Positions 1,800 to 51,229 of a stretch of DNA of 64,000 nt are shown here, piece by piece (the stretch's first letter is position 1; every line of letters starts with the position of its first letter). The DNA comes from a phage. The notes under the pieces were generated by a model that saw only the letters and a program-made list of their open reading frames with translations, did no database searches and was not told where the DNA came from. The translations under genes were made by a program, and so were the position numbers. Location: sequence record PZ809289.1. The stretch is one strand, 5' to 3'.

Positions 1800-1870
1800 G
1801 GCCCTGTAGCTGGACGGTCGAGCGAGCGACTCATAATCGCTGGATGGTGGTTCGATTCCACCCAGGGCCA
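1800..1870 (+). tRNA. tRNA with CAT anticodon (Ile-lysidine type or Met)
   Basis: Cloverleaf by hand folding: acceptor GGCCCTG/CAGGGCC, anticodon stem AGCGA/TCGCT with loop CTCATAA, T-arm GGTGG-TTCGATT-CCACC; CCA not encoded. Confidence 0.75.
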
Positions 1871-2582: not shown

Positions 2583-2657
2583 GTCCCGCTGGTGTAATGG
2601 ATAGCATACGATCCTTCTAAGTTTGCGGTCCTGGTTCGATCCCAGGGCGGGATACCA
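2583..2657 (+). tRNA. tRNA-Arg (anticodon TCT)
   Basis: Acceptor GTCCCGC/GCGGGAT with encoded CCA, anticodon loop CTTCTAA, T-arm CCTGG-TTCGATC-CCAGG. Confidence 0.8.
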
Positions 2658-7359: not shown

Positions 7360-7389
7360 TTTAACCACATGGATGTGGTAGGAGGACTT

Positions 7390-7762: not shown

Positions 7763-8002
7763 ATGTGGTATTACGCTCCGATGTCCGATAAGTCTAATGA
7801 ACCGGTACGCATTACTCGCGCCAAGTTTAAAAAGATTTATGGCTTCTCTTATAAGAAGTCTGATTACGGTGTTCGTTTTGAAGATGCCCACTGTATCAAT
7901 GACCCTTATGCTGAAGAAATCTCTAATGAGATAATTCCTATCATTAAGAATAATTCTGATGATATGTGGGAATTGCATAACGATTACGTCGCTGAAATTT
8001 AA
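7763..8002 (+). CDS. hypothetical protein
   Basis: SD GAGGAG; 79 aa. Confidence 0.5.
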   Translation: MWYYAPMSDKSNEPVRITRAKFKKIYGFSYKKSDYGVRFEDAHCINDPYAEEISNEIIPIIKNNSDDMWELHNDYVAEI

Positions 8003-8021
8003 GTTTACTGAGGAAAATATT

Positions 8022-8981
8022 ATGATGTTAGTTATTGGTTCTCGTGCACTGCACCACGCTGGTCTGATTGAAAGTAAGCATATCGAAAATTCTGATTGGG
8101 ATTTCATTGCCGACCAAGGCTCATGGAATCACTTTAAAGCACGTATGTTCGGCGCCCATGTACACGTTGACAATCCTGATGTCCAGGCTTTCAAATGTAT
8201 GCATAATGGTAAAGAAACCTATTTTGAAGCTTATATCGTTCGTGCTCTGACTAACGTACGAGAAATTACCGGTGAGCTTCAAGACGAAGATTTCACTTCA
8301 AGCTATCGTCTCCTGAAATATGCTGAAAATCATATTAAAAAGGACCGTCTTACTGGTTTCTATTGGGCCACCCCTGATATCTGTCTGGCTATCAAAACCT
8401 CTCATCGTTTCCTTAAGAATAATCCGTTCTTCTTGAAAACCATGTCCCACATCAAATACCTTCGTAATAAAGGTATCACCCTTAACGAAGAACTCCAGGA
8501 AATTATGTTGCAACGTCAAAAAGAAACGTTGAGCTATTCCCACCCTAAATTGGATGTAAACAAATCATCGTTCTTTAATGATACCATTTATACGCTGGAC
8601 CATGACTCTATTCATGAAGCAGTGGCATTGGCAGGGCGCCCTGCATATACCTTTTATATGAAGGAAGGTTCTGAAGTCATGACCTCTCGTGAGAAGTTCG
8701 AGGCTTTGCCTGAAGCTATTAAACTGGCTGGTGTATATGAAGAAACTTGTGTCCTGGCACTAGAACGTTCACAGGTTCCTAATGACTTCAATATTTCACC
8801 ATCATTAAGTTTTTATATGGCTCTTGAGAAAGTGTGTACCTCAATCACTTCAGGTTGGTTCCGCGAGTACGCCTGGGAAAACTACCAAGCTGTAGTGAAT
8901 ATGTATAAGACTTTAGGTGAAAACGACTACATTGAACGGTTTAAGCGTAACCAACATTTAATTCGTCCTTTCGAAAAATAA
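8022..8981 (+). CDS. putative nucleotidyltransferase-fold protein
   Basis: ATG 8022 after GAGGAAA; N-terminal IGSRALHHAGLIESKHIENSDWDFI resembles minimal NTase G-S...D-x-D motif, later HVHVD; about 320 aa. Confidence 0.45.
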   Translation: MMLVIGSRALHHAGLIESKHIENSDWDFIADQGSWNHFKARMFGAHVHVDNPDVQAFKCMHNGKETYFEAYIVRALTNVREITGELQDEDFTSSYRLLKYAENHIKKDRLTGFYWATPDICLAIKTSHRFLKNNPFFLKTMSHIKYLRNKGITLNEELQEIMLQRQKETLSYSHPKLDVNKSSFFNDTIYTLDHDSIHEAVALAGRPAYTFYMKEGSEVMTSREKFEALPEAIKLAGVYEETCVLALERSQVPNDFNISPSLSFYMALEKVCTSITSGWFREYAWENYQAVVNMYKTLGENDYIERFKRNQHLIRPFEK

Positions 8982-9272: not shown

Positions 9273-9286
9273 GTGAGGAAAATATT

Positions 9287-9973
9287 ATGAACGGTCCGAA
9301 AACTTTTAATTCTAAAGCTCGTGCAGTAGGTGGTTTTGCAGGTCATATTTCTAATGATGATATTAAAAACGAGCCTATGTTCTTTAACTGTGATTTGAAT
9401 TTTGCTGCACAAAATGGTGGTCCTATTACTCGTAGCTTTATTACTAATCTCCCTGATGAGTGGAAAGCCGTTGAATGCGTATTTGATTCCCGTGTACACA
9501 TGTTAATGCCCGGCTGGTACCCTGCAATTCCAGGCTTCCACCATGATGATGTACCCCGTCCGGATATTCCGGTTGGTCAACACTTTATTACCGCAGGGCA
9601 ACCTGATTATGATAATCCTCGATACCATTCTGAACATATTCTTGGTCTTGTTAACGCTGATGTGTGTCCTACTCATTTTGCAACCGGAACTGCCCAGTTC
9701 AGTCAGATTCCTGAAGGCGAACTTATCTATCGCCAGTGGCATAAAGAAGTTCTGGAAAAAATTGAGTCTAATGAATTAACTAAGTGGGATGCTCCTGACC
9801 GCACGTTGCTCCAGTTTGATTGGCAGACATGGCATACAGGTTCTCGTGCAGTAAGTAACGGTTGGCGCTGGTTTGGTCGTGTGTCTCGTAATACAGACCG
9901 TGTTAAAAAGATTACAAATGAAATCCGCGTTAATGCTCAAGTATATCTGGAATTTCCTATGGAGGGCTGGTAA
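9287..9973 (+). CDS. putative 2OG-Fe(II) oxygenase-like protein
   Basis: FHHDD (HxD), distal His in WHTGS and RWFGRVS (RxS) in the order expected for the 2-oxoglutarate dioxygenase fold; SD GAGGAAA. Confidence 0.45.
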   Translation: MNGPKTFNSKARAVGGFAGHISNDDIKNEPMFFNCDLNFAAQNGGPITRSFITNLPDEWKAVECVFDSRVHMLMPGWYPAIPGFHHDDVPRPDIPVGQHFITAGQPDYDNPRYHSEHILGLVNADVCPTHFATGTAQFSQIPEGELIYRQWHKEVLEKIESNELTKWDAPDRTLLQFDWQTWHTGSRAVSNGWRWFGRVSRNTDRVKKITNEIRVNAQVYLEFPMEGW

Positions 9974-10566
9974 TGGCCCTTTATGAACCTGGATGTATGG
10001 GTATTGATACAAACTTCATCCGTCGGTCGGAAAATGCCGGAATTATTATCCCAAGTGGTGAACATATGATTATTAAAAAGTCCTGGCGAAATATCGATGA
10101 CGGTGATGAAGGAATTTCAGCCAGTACAATAGATTGGTCAGGTTGTACTGCCGAAATGAAACAGCTTTTAATTGAGGAGTTCAGAATGGGTTATATCGTA
10201 AATGGTTGGCAACCGGTAAAGAAAATCACCCGCACTGACGATAAGTATATTTGTCTCCAAGATGGAAAGGCTAAGCTCATTGATACTGAATGGCTTACGT
10301 TCGGACGATATGTTGTAGCGTATTTTATTACTTTACTTCCAATGATAGTGTTGAGTTCATTTTTAATCGACGCCAATTGGAATGATGCGCTAGAACGAAC
10401 TATTATTGGTGCGGGATTAATGAACCTTTTCACCGCTGGAGCTGCTTTAAGTATTTGGTGCTTGGCTATTGAAATGCCATGGCGTTTACGTCGTCAACAA
10501 CGTCTTTACGACGAAGGTAAAAACAAACATAATTTAAATGAGTTTATTAAGGAATGCCGTAAATGA
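9973..10566 (+). CDS. membrane protein
   Basis: TAATG overlap; hydrophobic helices; C-terminal NLNEFIKECRK. Confidence 0.55.
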   Translation: MALYEPGCMGIDTNFIRRSENAGIIIPSGEHMIIKKSWRNIDDGDEGISASTIDWSGCTAEMKQLLIEEFRMGYIVNGWQPVKKITRTDDKYICLQDGKAKLIDTEWLTFGRYVVAYFITLLPMIVLSSFLIDANWNDALERTIIGAGLMNLFTAGAALSIWCLAIEMPWRLRRQQRLYDEGKNKHNLNEFIKECRK

Positions 10567-47018: not shown

Positions 47019-47078
47019 GCAATACCAATTTATTAAAAATAGTGTATAATGTACCTACATTCACTTGAGGAACAGATA

Positions 47079-48752
47079 ATGAAAAAGGTTGTTATTTTAG
47101 GCGCGGGTCTTGGCTCACGGTTGTATCCAATTACCAACGAAATCCCGAAGGTACTGGTTAACTACAAACAACATACTGTATTAAAACATTTGTATGATTT
47201 GTATAGTAATCAATCAGATGAAATTATTCTGGTTATTCACAGCAAATTTAACGACCTCGTTAAAGGCTATATTAAATCCATTAACATGATTAATAGTGAT
47301 AAGCCTAAATTCACTATTCGTAACGTTGATGTTGCCAATGGTTCGGCTCATGCTATCGATTGCATTGCTGAAGATATCATTGGGCACAATGTCTTGTTTA
47401 ACTGGTGTGATATTATTCCTGAAGGTCATAAAGTTGAGTGGGATACCGACTACTGTTATACCTATGGGACCGACTGTCGTTTTACATTTGAAGAACCGTA
47501 CTTGCGTGAAATTGGTACCGGTGGTGGCGTAGTTGGCTTGTATCAGGTGGCTAATTGGACAGGTTTCGACCGTTCTAATTATGGTGAAGACCTTGCTGAC
47601 AACCTGGATTCAATGGTCCATTTGACTGAACGTAAGTTAGACTTTGTAGTTGATGTTGGTGACAAACTGAAACTGGCTAAGGCCCATGAAGATTCTGAAA
47701 TTAACCGTGAATTTAATAAATTAGAGTTCACTGAGAATCTAGCTATTAAAGTACCTACAAACGAATTAGGTAAAGAAATCCAATCTAAAGAAATCAATTG
47801 GTACAATTCTATTGATTCTGAATTCGTTCCTAGCATTGTAGACTTTGCTCCAGGTGAATTCATTAAAATGGAACGTATCTTTGGTCGAACCATGGCAGAT
47901 GCCTACCGGTTTATGTCTAAAGAAACTAAAGTCCTAATGGTTTATAAGGTTATTAGTGCATTACGTTCGTTCGGTGGAACTATCGATAATCCGTCCGATG
48001 AGCAATGGTATTCTGATGTTAAGAAAGAAGTATTGGACAAGGTCCTTATTCGTAATGCTTCTATTGCCGGATTGATTGAAGGCTTTGCTCCACAGGGTAT
48101 TACCCATGTTAACGACTTCAAGGTAGGCGACCCAGAAAAACTTCTTCGTCACGCCTTAGAAATTCTGTCTGAACATAAAGAACCGTACCAACTTATTCAT
48201 GGCGACCCGCACTACAGTAATATTATGTTGTCGGACGAAGGTAATATTAAAATCATCGACCCACGTGGTTATTTTGGTAATAGTTCTAAAGGCCCTGCGA
48301 TTTATGATGAAGCTAAGGTGCTTTATTCTATCGATGGTTATGACAAATTTAACTCTGACCCTCTATGGGGTGGCTTAACTCGTAACGGAACTCGTGTATT
48401 CGTTGATATTGAAAAGGTTATGCCTTTAGATGATATTCCGATGTGTACATTTAAGCACAAGCTCTGGATTGCTGTTATCTGGATGGCATTGGCAGGTTAC
48501 TTTAAAAATAACCCTCTGAAAGCTCTGGGCGCTTATTACAATGGGCTATATCAACTGAGTGTGCTGCTGAAGCGGCATCCTCGTAAGCGTAAGCTTATCA
48601 CAGGTGAATTCGTTGATGAAGTTCGCGACCCTATCACGGCTCAAATTATCACTCGTTGTCCTGATAAGTGGGTTTTGCTTGACCAGGAAACTGGTGTAAA
48701 ATATAAACCTACAGGTTCTACCGAACTCCACAAACAATGGAAGAAAATTTAA
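47079..48752 (+). CDS. bifunctional sugar-1-phosphate nucleotidyltransferase / APH-fold kinase
   Basis: N-terminal ILGAGLGSRLYPITNEIPKVLV (RmlA/GlmU-type); C-terminal LIHGDPHYSNIML and IKIIDPRG (Brenner motif); ATG 47079 after GAGGAACAG. Confidence 0.7.
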   Translation: MKKVVILGAGLGSRLYPITNEIPKVLVNYKQHTVLKHLYDLYSNQSDEIILVIHSKFNDLVKGYIKSINMINSDKPKFTIRNVDVANGSAHAIDCIAEDIIGHNVLFNWCDIIPEGHKVEWDTDYCYTYGTDCRFTFEEPYLREIGTGGGVVGLYQVANWTGFDRSNYGEDLADNLDSMVHLTERKLDFVVDVGDKLKLAKAHEDSEINREFNKLEFTENLAIKVPTNELGKEIQSKEINWYNSIDSEFVPSIVDFAPGEFIKMERIFGRTMADAYRFMSKETKVLMVYKVISALRSFGGTIDNPSDEQWYSDVKKEVLDKVLIRNASIAGLIEGFAPQGITHVNDFKVGDPEKLLRHALEILSEHKEPYQLIHGDPHYSNIMLSDEGNIKIIDPRGYFGNSSKGPAIYDEAKVLYSIDGYDKFNSDPLWGGLTRNGTRVFVDIEKVMPLDDIPMCTFKHKLWIAVIWMALAGYFKNNPLKALGAYYNGLYQLSVLLKRHPRKRKLITGEFVDEVRDPITAQIITRCPDKWVLLDQETGVKYKPTGSTELHKQWKKI

Positions 48753-49111
48753 TGCATCTGTGTTTTGATATCGATAATACCATTACTCACTGGCAAGATG
48801 ACCGTGATTACGAAAACTTTAAACCGGACACCGAAATGGTGTCCATGATTAATAAGCTTTATGATGAAGGGTACGAGATTACCTTGTTCACTGCCCGTGG
48901 TATGACTTCATGCGGCCCGGGTCGAATCTTGGTTGAAGTAGTTCCTGCATTAGTTAAGAACCTTGAAAAGATTGGATTGAAATATCACAATCTGCTTACA
49001 CATAAGCCGAGTTATACTTTTATCATCGATGACCGAGCAATCCGTCCTGACCACTTTAAAGAAATGGTTCGTGAAGGAACTCTTGAAACCTATAAGGCAT
49101 ATCATCCGTGA
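48752..49111 (+). CDS. HAD-superfamily phosphatase
   Basis: Motif I FDIDNTIT (DxDxT) at N-terminus, downstream TARG and IIDD; TAATG overlap. Confidence 0.65.
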   Translation: MHLCFDIDNTITHWQDDRDYENFKPDTEMVSMINKLYDEGYEITLFTARGMTSCGPGRILVEVVPALVKNLEKIGLKYHNLLTHKPSYTFIIDDRAIRPDHFKEMVREGTLETYKAYHP

Positions 49112-49644
49112 AACCAAAAATCATTGTTATCGACGGCCCGGATAATTCCGGGAAGTCTACTTTAATTGAATCACTTTTATCTGATAAGAAATATCGTCTT
49201 ATTGATTTCCCTAAAAAGATTAATGGCAAATGCATTTCATTAGGGACTGATAATGACAAGGCTTTAGTCGAGACGTTGTATAAGTTTTTAGACCCTAATT
49301 TTGTCTACATCTTAGACCGTGGGTATCCTAGTAATATTGTTTACTCTGGATTCCTTCGTGGTGAAATGGACCCTTATGTAGAACTGGAAGATTGGAAAGG
49401 GTTTAAATCTGAATTCAATATTATTGAGGTTATTTTAACCCGTAATCCACTGGATAAAGACTTTGAAGATGACCTTATTAAATTAACCAAAGACGAGTTC
49501 AACCTAACTATCCGGCAATATGAAACATGTTTTGAAAACGTGTTTAAAATCTTAAATCACGACGGCCATAATAACTTGCTTAACGTCGATATGGTAGAAT
49601 TAAAACGTCTGAATGAATATATTGAAAATAAGGTGAATAAATGA
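49108..49644 (+). CDS. P-loop nucleotide kinase (dNMP/thymidylate-kinase-like)
   Basis: Walker A IVIDGPDNSGKST, DRG-Y motif; ATGA overlap. Confidence 0.6.
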   Translation: MKPKIIVIDGPDNSGKSTLIESLLSDKKYRLIDFPKKINGKCISLGTDNDKALVETLYKFLDPNFVYILDRGYPSNIVYSGFLRGEMDPYVELEDWKGFKSEFNIIEVILTRNPLDKDFEDDLIKLTKDEFNLTIRQYETCFENVFKILNHDGHNNLLNVDMVELKRLNEYIENKVNK

Positions 49645-50339
49645 AACACATTACCGCTGTTAGTTTTGAAAACGCGTTTAAGCAAATGAACGAAGAAATC
49701 CTGGAAGCCCCACAGTTTGCAGTTGATTCTCGTATCGGCCGTTGTTATGAAATTGGTTCTGCTTCGGTAGAAGTACTGGATGCAAGCACCTATAAATTCA
49801 CCGACCCTCGTATTAATCGTATCAACTATGATTATGCCGAATCTTTCTGGAAGTTTATGATTTCTGGTGGTACTGACGCCGCCGAAGCATTTAAGGAATA
49901 CCCTAATGTTGCTAAGTTCATTGATAAGCCGAAAAGTGACGTATTGCCTGCAAACTTCAACACTTTCTATGGACCTAGAATTGTGGCCCAACTCCCAGCC
50001 TTACTTAAAGAGCTTAAAGAGAAGCCTAACTCAAGACGAGTTGTGTTCCAAATTCTCCAAGAACAAGACCAAGCCCTCCTTGATTCTGACGAATCCTTAG
50101 AATATCCATGTACTGATTCAGTGACATATTATATTCGTGATGGACGTCTTTATGCACATACCCATATGCGTTCACAGAACTGTGCTATTGTTATGCAGCT
50201 GGATTTCTATCTGCAGGGTAAACTGATGGCCTTTATTGCTGAACAGTGTGGTGTTGGTCTGGGTACGTATTCCCATACTATGGTTAGTGCACACGTATTT
50301 GAACGTGATTTTGACTACGTTCGAGGATTCCTGAAATGA
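49641..50339 (+). CDS. 42: pyrimidine hydroxymethylase of thymidylate-synthase family (gp42-like)
   Basis: CTDSVTYYIRDGRLYAHTHMRSQNCAIVMQLDFY aligns with the T4 gp42 active-site region; ATGA overlap. Confidence 0.75.
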   Translation: MKHITAVSFENAFKQMNEEILEAPQFAVDSRIGRCYEIGSASVEVLDASTYKFTDPRINRINYDYAESFWKFMISGGTDAAEAFKEYPNVAKFIDKPKSDVLPANFNTFYGPRIVAQLPALLKELKEKPNSRRVVFQILQEQDQALLDSDESLEYPCTDSVTYYIRDGRLYAHTHMRSQNCAIVMQLDFYLQGKLMAFIAEQCGVGLGTYSHTMVSAHVFERDFDYVRGFLK

Positions 50340-51229
50340 GTTTGTTTATCGTTCCTATTTTCAGTATGCGTAGTTACGAAACAGGTGAATATGCCGTCCT
50401 TAAGGACGGCAATTTTCAACTCCATTTAAACCGTGCTTGCCCAGGTGATTATCTGGCTTATCCTAGAAATTCGAGCGATATCAAAGAATGCATTGAATTA
50501 TTTCCTGAACTGAATTTTGTACCTCTTTGGTATAAAGAAAATGCTTATGAAACTCGTAAACATTTTTGGTCTGAAAATGAGTTCGTTGTTGATTCGTTAA
50601 TCGAATACTATGACTGCTCAGGATTGGTAACCGATATCACAGGTTATGATGGTGCTCATACCGTACAATTCAACTTTAACATTACAATGGACCCTGAAGT
50701 TCCTCGTTATTACATCGATGAGTTTATTGATACCGACGTGGGTTCAGTTGAACGTTCGATTTATACTACAGTCTTGAATCAATGTCAGAAAGACGTCCTG
50801 GTGTCACGAGGTGCGTCCTCTGATAAGATTTTTGTAGACCAAAAGGTAATTAATCCGGCAGTAATTGAGCGTTACTCTGAAGGTCTAGCGCCTATTAAAA
50901 TTGATGGTATTTTCCATCCATTCCGTATCTCTGATAAATGTTATCAATTCGAAAGAGTTGTAGACCAAGCTGCGGCTGAAGGTTCTCGCCTTTATATCAC
51001 CGATCCGAATGATTCATTTAAGCGTGAAGACTATCGTCCTGATGTAGAGATTATTAAATTCAAACCGAGTAAGGTTGAATATTATCAGATTCTGAAATCA
51101 AGACCTCATATCATTTATCATGAGAATCCCGGTTTAGTATTCCATCCTGGTCTGGCTGAATTCATTTATTTCGGTGCCCACATCCATTCTGAGCACGAAA
51201 TGCCAAGTTATGAGGACGTGGTCCTTTAA
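50336..51229 (+). CDS. putative DNA glycosyltransferase (occupies beta-gt position, not beta-gt-like)
   Basis: 297 aa ORF between gp42-like gene and uvsX, ATGA coupled to gene 42; no motif recognised by eye. Confidence 0.4.
   Translation: MSLFIVPIFSMRSYETGEYAVLKDGNFQLHLNRACPGDYLAYPRNSSDIKECIELFPELNFVPLWYKENAYETRKHFWSENEFVVDSLIEYYDCSGLVTDITGYDGAHTVQFNFNITMDPEVPRYYIDEFIDTDVGSVERSIYTTVLNQCQKDVLVSRGASSDKIFVDQKVINPAVIERYSEGLAPIKIDGIFHPFRISDKCYQFERVVDQAAAEGSRLYITDPNDSFKREDYRPDVEIIKFKPSKVEYYQILKSRPHIIYHENPGLVFHPGLAEFIYFGAHIHSEHEMPSYEDVVL

Follow-up and report, generated by a model that had tools for sequence, protein, structure and literature searches.

A divergent, phage-restricted family of predicted PhyH-like Fe(II)/2-oxoglutarate oxygenases represented in a T4-like coliphage

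Results

A conserved reading frame upstream of the e.2, nudE and e orthologs

The 64,000-nucleotide stretch of phage DNA analysed here (sequence record PZ809289.1, hereafter the window) carries, just upstream of the orthologs of T4 e.2, the Nudix gene nudE and the lysozyme gene e, an open reading frame (ORF) for a protein of 228 amino acids. An earlier note on this DNA, made from the sequence alone, had proposed that it encodes a 2-oxoglutarate (2OG)/Fe(II) dioxygenase, and the conservation and fold analyses described below make such an activity probable. The reading frame is real: its ATG is preceded by a Shine-Dalgarno sequence (Table 1), the N-terminus of the protein is kept from residue 1 onward in close homologs, and the TAA stop codon (positions 9971-9973) overlaps the start of the next gene in the sequence TAATG, in which the downstream ATG is at 9973. 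A scan for promoters and terminators gave signals no higher than the shuffled expectation. Phages IME540 and QL01 match ~5 kb around the gene at 96–97% identity, and phage fDHCT2 encodes a protein with 100% identity to the query; the source of the window is a JS98/RB69-type T4-like coliphage.

The predicted cofactor residues are the best-conserved positions of the family

The proposal of a dioxygenase had been based on three motifs, FHHDD (residues 84–88), WHTGS (182–186) and RWFGRVS (194–200), all of which are found where the earlier note had located them within this ORF; the distal His it had placed about 100 residues downstream is H183, 98 residues past H85, and the RxS motif follows shortly after. 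By itself this pattern is weak and not significant, as an H-x-D/E followed by a His at 60–160 residues and then by R-x-S/T arises in 10.9% of cases when the sequence is shuffled 20,000 times. The case for an oxygenase therefore relies on conservation and fold. Conservation was assessed in an alignment of 118 diverse homologs (A3; ~28–53% identity to the query, 21% mean column identity). Its best-conserved columns are the predicted cofactor residues: H85 and R194 are present in all 118 sequences, D87, H183 and R198 in 117 each, and position 200 is Ser or Thr in 114 (97%). The HxD motif is indeed contained in FHHDD; however, position 86 is variable (H, L, T or C) and D88 is conserved in just 72% of the sequences, and the register of the metal motif is thus H85-x-D87 rather than H86-x-D88. 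A Trp occupies position 84 in 92% of the sequences, giving W-H-x-D. Another His, H99, lies outside the conserved core because the short insert that holds it occurs in only 2 of the 118 sequences.

Further strongly conserved residues are D67, R69/K, H71, W84, R91, Q105, P106, H117, T129, F131, Y148, R214 and Y220, among which the basic residues R69/K, R91 and R214 exceed what 2OG binding needs. At the other end of the protein, a Gly-Trp dipeptide (G227 in 112 and W228 in 114 of the 118) forms the exact C-terminus in ~95% of the homologs. The terminal Trp could close or complete the active site, or provide a dimer contact.

The predicted fold is a jelly-roll with PhyH-type enzymes as nearest neighbours

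AlphaFold2 was run on two different alignments, and the two models are confident and agree with each other: model 1 has a predicted local distance difference test score (pLDDT) of 85.6 and a predicted template modelling (TM) score of 0.85, and model 2 has values of 87.9 and 0.86, with all five models at 86–88. Strands 65–73, 82–85, 116–122, 129–138, 165–168, 173–178, 182–185 and 192–201, with a helix at 147–160, build the double-stranded beta-helix (jelly-roll) core of the Fe(II)/2OG superfamily. H85 ends strand 82–85, D87 is in the loop that follows and H183 is in strand 182–185, the seventh of those listed, while R194, R198 and S200 occupy alternating positions of the last strand and thus point to the same face. 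As modelled, this layout of triad and arginines is canonical for Fe(II)/2OG oxygenases. The dioxygenase fold that the earlier note had suggested is supported by these models, which place a conserved His-Asp-His set on the expected elements of a jelly-roll.

The top fold neighbours are enzymes acting on small molecules or free amino acids. The PhyH-type small-molecule enzymes come nearest, above every AlkB relative; in the fold comparison prolyl hydroxylases scored up to 7.6 and AlkB homologs 6.2–7.2, and no TET/JBP structure was among the 60 matches listed. The earlier note had recommended a comparison with AlkB, TET/JBP and prolyl hydroxylases; the closest structures belong to the PhyH type. 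Foldseek against the PDB returned the same class with weak scores (best E 1.7e-3). In BFVD, the nearest neighbours outside the family's own members are uncharacterised proteins encoded by giant viruses, by jumbo phages and by a Ralstonia phage. Among the matches that carry a name, 'Phytanoyl-CoA dioxygenase' comes first, and the similarity to named viral 2OG/PhyH proteins is weak (E 3e-3 to 4e-2, TM about 0.3).

With the PhyH-like oxygenases (PF05721; EasH 4nao, ectoine hydroxylase EctD 4nmi, ColD 8xpf and proline hydroxylase H11 7dzz) the query family shares a W-H-x-D that ends a core strand, a distal His ~100 residues on, an Arg 11 residues past that His, and a helix (147–160 in the query) inserted between strands IV and V of the core. 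Identity in the structural alignments is only 8–16%, and the query family differs in being shorter (about 225 against 245–290 amino acids), in occurring almost only in phages and in its invariant C-terminal Gly-Trp. Compared with the AlkB family (E. coli AlkB and ALKBH2/3/5), besides the lower ranking of the latter, the arginines of the query are found 11 and 15 residues past the distal His, whereas those of E. coli AlkB are found 17 and 23 residues past it, and the query has an acidic isoelectric point (pI).

Table 1. Coordinates of the features in the window (positions count from its first letter)
Feature	Position	Strand	Evidence or remark
Predicted Fe(II)/2OG oxygenase coding sequence, 228 amino acids	9287..9973 (ATG at 9287, stop included)	+	ortholog of RB69ORF132c and 44RRORF247c; in PHROG 1843
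GAGGA, Shine-Dalgarno/ribosome-binding site	9275..9279	+	7 nt before ATG 9287; seen directly in the sequence
H85-H86-D87 codons, HxD portion of the predicted iron-binding facial triad (H85 + D87)	9539..9547	+	A3 conservation; AlphaFold2 strand placement
H183 codon, predicted distal iron ligand	9833..9835	+	conservation; strand 182–185; distal-His alignment with BesD weak (E 0.48)
R194-W-F-G-R198-V-S200 codons, predicted 2OG C5-carboxylate site	9866..9886	+	RxS-type motif and second Arg (R194) 11 residues past H183
C-terminal G227-W228 codons	9965..9970	+	A3 conservation
Fused NTP (nucleoside triphosphate)-transferase and APH-type kinase	47049-48752	+	~0.9 kb upstream of the thymidylate-synthase homolog
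Kinase-like ORF	49108-49644	+	close to the thymidylate-synthase homolog
Thymidylate-synthase homolog (gene 42 homolog)	49641-50339	+	25% identity to T4 gp42
RB69-type cytosine-modification block	47049-51229	+	gene content
340-amino-acid DUF7277/DUF7275 protein	7959-8981	+	~0.3 kb upstream of the oxygenase gene
T4 e.2 ortholog	9973-10566	+	43% identity; PHROG 2203 'membrane protein'
tRNA-Met (CAT)	1800-1870	+	~7 kb upstream of the oxygenase gene
tRNA-Arg (TCT)	2583-2657	+	~7 kb upstream of the oxygenase gene

The protein belongs to a large family outside the described ones

Clustering at 90% left 1322 homologs, and a profile search of a 50%-identity library returned 723 cluster representatives at E ≤ 0.001, so that the family is a large one, present in many phage groups used for therapy and research. 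The query matches PHROG 1843 (E 5e-94) and PHROG 23363, both without assigned function. In every phage record examined the product is labelled 'hypothetical protein'; the UniRef cluster of one close homolog (P0015, Aeromonas phage AS-yj) has been automatically named 'Phytanoyl-CoA dioxygenase family protein'. A literature search with the RB69 and 44RR gene names and the PHROG number found nothing, and neither the query nor the alignments matched PADLOC. Against the PDB sequences, the query alone gave chance-level matches (E ≥ 0.16), the profile of a further alignment (A2) gave none, and the A3 profile had a single match, the Fe/2OG halogenase BesD (E 0.48), in which H183 falls on a His and R194 on an Arg 11 residues later. 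As a sequence alignment, this in-register link to a solved enzyme is suggestive only. Several halogenases are present in the fold-match lists as well. However, Fe/2OG halogenases (BesD 6nie, WelO5, SyrB2, HalB/HalD) have Gly or Ala in place of the carboxylate ligand, and the query family, which keeps D87 in 117 of 118 members, lacks this HxG/A signature. As the carboxylate ligand is kept, the enzyme would be of the hydroxylase type and halogenation is not expected.

Single-domain 2OG oxygenases of ~200 amino acids encoded in T4-type accessory regions are already known in phages, as PHROG 61 (prolyl-hydroxylase/EGLN-like) in marine T4-like phages and as a PhyH-like core gene in cyanophages; both share the superfamily and the cofactor chemistry predicted here (PMC3037559; PMC12774648). 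The query is not assigned to PHROG 61, the group of known marine-phage 2OG oxygenases (PMC12774648), and its family is found in enterobacterial, Aeromonas, Bacillus, actinobacterial and T7-like phages rather than in cyanophages.

On the combined evidence of conservation and predicted fold, we consider it probable, with good confidence, that the gene encodes an active Fe(II)/2OG oxygenase. Most likely it is a stand-alone oxygenase in a divergent, phage-restricted family of the PhyH-like branch of the double-stranded beta-helix superfamily: by sequence the protein lies outside every described family, while its modelled fold, and with it its predicted function, is like that of a PhyH-type 2OG oxygenase. 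The family is new and undescribed, but of a well-known kind of enzyme that would not surprise a specialist. Assignment to the Fe(II)/2OG class provides a large set of 'hypothetical' proteins with an annotation that can be tested, H85A, D87A, H183A, R194A and R198A being clear mutants.

Several observations weigh against this assignment. Pfam had no match for the query or for a 41-member set, and only one of the 118 members weakly resembled PhyH, at an E value of 0.068 that is below the cut-off; the score against PF05721 thus stays under the gathering threshold even though the nearest structures are of the PhyH type. NCBIfam had no match for the query or the alignments. The geometry of the metal site was deduced from the placement of residues in predicted models, in which loop 96–103 and the C-terminus are poorly modelled (pLDDT <50 for residues 221–228 of model 1; mean of 55 for the C-terminal block of model 2). 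The lack of a sequence-family match is also what one would expect of a jelly-roll protein that uses His, Asp and His for another metal reaction, or for binding only. Three members weakly match the AraC_binding cupin model (E 0.003), and tandem relatives described below show that the fold can persist without the HxD motif. Nevertheless, R194, R198 and S/T200, the residues predicted to hold 2OG, are conserved as strongly as the metal ligands, and a function other than that of a 2OG oxygenase is very unlikely.

Fe(II)/2OG enzymes hold iron by a His/Asp/His triad, anchor 2OG by Arg/Ser and use a ferryl species to hydroxylate a C–H bond. In the predicted oxygenase, H85, D87 and H183 would hold Fe(II), the C1 carboxylate and C2 keto group of 2OG would chelate the iron, and its C5 carboxylate would be held by R198 and S200 (the RxS motif) and/or by R194. 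Binding of O2 and oxidative decarboxylation would yield succinate, CO2 and Fe(IV)=O, which would abstract a hydrogen from the substrate and then hydroxylate it. Conversion of 2OG to succinate could also be an end in itself, as an uncoupled drain that shifts the carbon/nitrogen signalling of the host: the same idea has been put forward for the PhyH-like core genes of T4-like cyanophages (PMC3037559), no partner would be needed, and the very different hosts concerned all contain 2OG. The conservation of D67, R91, Q105/P106, H117, T129, Y148, R214, Y220 and the C-terminal Gly-Trp speaks instead for a specific second substrate, and uncoupled turnover usually inactivates Fe(II)/2OG oxygenases. We regard such a drain as highly improbable.

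Distribution among phages and genomic context

The family occurs in T4-like, T7-like, Vequintavirinae and Bastille-like phages and in actinobacteriophages. A close T4-like clade is 68–93% identical to the query; a second clade, at ~30% identity, comprises Vequintavirinae, Bastille-like Bacillus phages, Yersinia phage phiR1-RT, and Mycobacterium and Gordonia phages. T4 itself has no such gene by a profile search of its whole genome and by tblastn (best E 0.86), and its absence from T4 may explain why no study of the family was found. A search of 185,579 species genomes of bacteria and archaea recovered only 25 loci. At least four of these (in Caulobacter, Paraburkholderia, Caballeronia and Brucella) contain genes of T7-like phages and seven, two of which belong to these four, are identical to IMG/VR viral contigs; the copies in cellular genomes appear to belong mostly to prophages or phage DNA.

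The position of the gene varies between lineages. In Aeromonas phage 44RR2.8t it is located between rIIB and ndd, whereas in ~15 loci of T7-like phages and prophages it is located between the T7-type primase/helicase and DNA polymerase A genes; in three of them, the polymerase gene follows it after 4 nt. In some lineages, genes of the RNA-repair type are found within a few kb: RtcB in mycobacteriophage Nanosmite, an RNA ligase (PF09414) in five loci and a nucleotidyltransferase with a poly(A)-polymerase head in eight. In the T7-like loci L052-L059 and L095/L096, which have the oxygenase gene between primase/helicase and DNA polymerase, a nucleotidyltransferase of this kind, of ~190–240 amino acids, is encoded 3–5 kb downstream, beside the 5'-3' exonuclease gene. 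Clustering of the ORFs of 80 IMG/VR loci identified no partner gene conserved across lineages, and none of the window neighbours at 7369, 7959, 8982, 9973 and 10563 recurs in these loci. In Stenotrophomonas phage SBP5phi2, the ORF directly downstream of the oxygenase gene is unrelated to the e.2-like gene of the window.

The longer relatives carry N-terminal extensions or a degenerate second copy, without any Pfam domain. Tandem-duplicated oxygenases of 387–474 amino acids are represented by four sequences that were read (P0258, P0291, P0342 and P0382) and by ORFs recognised by their length only in loci L108 (5923-7290), L113 (4717-6060) and L114 (5797-7221). In the four sequences, copy 1 retains HxD...H...R and copy 2 is devoid of metal ligands; the second copies keep the fold signature and an aromatic residue at the C-terminus, which is Trp in three of them and Phe in the fourth. 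Judged from their sequences, these proteins look like built-in active/inactive pseudo-dimers, and the existence of duplicates with an HxD-less second copy suggests that a dimer is the form in which the normal protein acts.

Which substrate?

Our tentative choice of substrate, to which we give somewhat less than an even chance, is a small anionic metabolite that very different hosts have in common; a nucleotide, a nucleoside or an acidic amino-acid-like compound would qualify. This class is favoured because the fold neighbours act on small molecules, because the pI is low (5.9 for the query, with a family median of 6.2), because Pfam scans of the query and of the 118 members found no extra domain beyond the oxygenase, and because the spare basic residues R69/K, R91 and R214 are conserved. 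The enzyme would act in the early or DNA-metabolism phase of infection. On the other side of the balance for this class of substrate, the indicators are weak, the Z scores of the PhyH-like enzymes and of AlkBH3 are only ~1.3 units apart, and the position of the gene in replication modules and near RNA-repair genes would be just as consistent with a substrate of nucleic acid.

A nucleic-acid polymer or a protein is less likely as substrate. The earlier note had raised repair of alkylated nucleic acids and hydroxylation of nucleobases or proteins as roles of such enzymes in phages. Repair or erasure of methyl marks in the manner of AlkB, or hydroxylation of bases in phage DNA, tRNA or mRNA, is a possible role, in line with the position of the gene inside the replication module of T7-like phages, with the RtcB, RNA ligase and poly(A)-polymerase-head genes nearby in several lineages, and with the several conserved arginines, which could contact a phosphate backbone. 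It is not favoured, however, as the PhyH-type structures outrank the AlkB relatives and, as noted above, TET/JBP structures were not among the listed matches; moreover, none of the 118 members matched the AlkB family PF13532 (2OG-FeII_Oxy_2) at E ≤ 10 or the TET/JBP family PF12851 (Tet_JBP). The pI of the family is acidic to neutral, the protein is minimal, without an added nucleic-acid-binding domain, and its distribution does not track that of cytosine-modification genes. The argument from context is itself weak, since many accessory genes without any relation to one another are housed in the early and replication regions of phages. Overall, action on nucleic acids is rather unlikely.

Hydroxylation of a host or phage protein, for instance a translation factor or a ribosomal protein, much as prolyl, lysyl or arginyl hydroxylases do, would have the merit that a universally conserved host protein would account for the wide host range of the family, and phage and giant-virus examples are known from the literature. 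Yet such enzymes score below the PhyH type in the fold comparison, the query belongs to PHROG 1843 and not to the P4H/EGLN-like PHROG 61 (PMC12774648), none of the 118 members matched the P4H-type Pfam family 2OG-FeII_Oxy_3, and no candidate substrate gene travels with the oxygenase. A protein substrate is accordingly doubtful, and we consider it quite improbable.

The oxygenase could be a phage-specific enzyme with a new biological role, acting on a nucleotide-type molecule (a modified or chain-terminating nucleotide, an alarmone or an immune second messenger) or on a nucleic-acid base, in counter-defence or in support of replication, a role that would be shared by T4-like, T7-like, Bacillus and actinobacterial phages. 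We keep this reading, unlikely as it is, because the gene travels alone, recurs in replication modules, has spare conserved arginines and has no characterised relative. Should the substrate prove to be a nucleotide or an immune signal, the family would extend the oxygen-dependent functions of phages by a new kind; with an ordinary metabolite as substrate, the gene would be one more auxiliary metabolic gene.

The window carries an RB69-type cytosine-modification block

The earlier note had considered the oxygenase as notable in a genome with a hydroxymethylase-based DNA modification pathway. This premise calls for correction. The gene 42 homolog of the window is only 25% identical to T4 gp42, has relatives in Acinetobacter phages and in Rhizobium phage RL38J1, and belongs to the RB69/RL38J1 family of thymidylate-synthase-like enzymes, which make 5-hydroxy-dCMP (deoxycytidine monophosphate; PMC13326640). 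RB69 arabinosylates 5-hydroxycytosine in a pathway begun by this thymidylate-synthase homolog (PMC13326640). The genes surrounding the homolog in the window form a comparable block (Table 1), and no match to the T4 alpha- or beta-glucosyltransferase was found in the window. By analogy, the phage probably makes arabinosylated 5-hydroxycytosine as RB69 does, and the context of the oxygenase gene is corrected to RB69-type arabinosyl-5-hydroxycytosine genes instead of the T4-type hydroxymethylcytosine/glucose system.

A part for the oxygenase in cytosine modification was considered and rejected. The table of RB69 pathway genes has no 2OG enzyme in it (PMC13326640). In addition, phages of Aeromonas, Mycobacterium and Gordonia commonly carry the oxygenase, whereas the ThyA homolog is common in those of Acinetobacter and Rhizobium, and these different distributions do not support such a role. 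Phage TET/JBP-like 5-methylpyrimidine dioxygenases, which like the predicted oxygenase are phage-encoded Fe(II)/2OG enzymes, provide a precedent for the action of this class in DNA hypermodification (PMC8256090; PMC13229309). However, the query has no Tet_JBP match, and the block at 47–51 kb of the window is founded on a homolog of thymidylate synthase instead of a 2OG enzyme.

Other genes of the region

The protein encoded upstream of the oxygenase gene, with one small ORF between them, contains DUF7277 (E 2.5e-27) and DUF7275 (E 2e-77). It has no T4 homolog and no NCBIfam or PADLOC match, and its gene is not found beside the oxygenase gene in other lineages. Further upstream, the window tRNA pair corresponds in relative position to the far larger tRNA cluster of T4. 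Downstream, the membrane-protein gene orthologous to e.2 invites comparison with T4, where the e.2 frame (locus L005, 12482-12961, minus strand) has two in-frame stops and the similarity runs on to the C-terminus. A membrane protein of ~166–197 amino acids thus appears to have been cut short in T4, leaving the annotated e.2 product of 103 amino acids.
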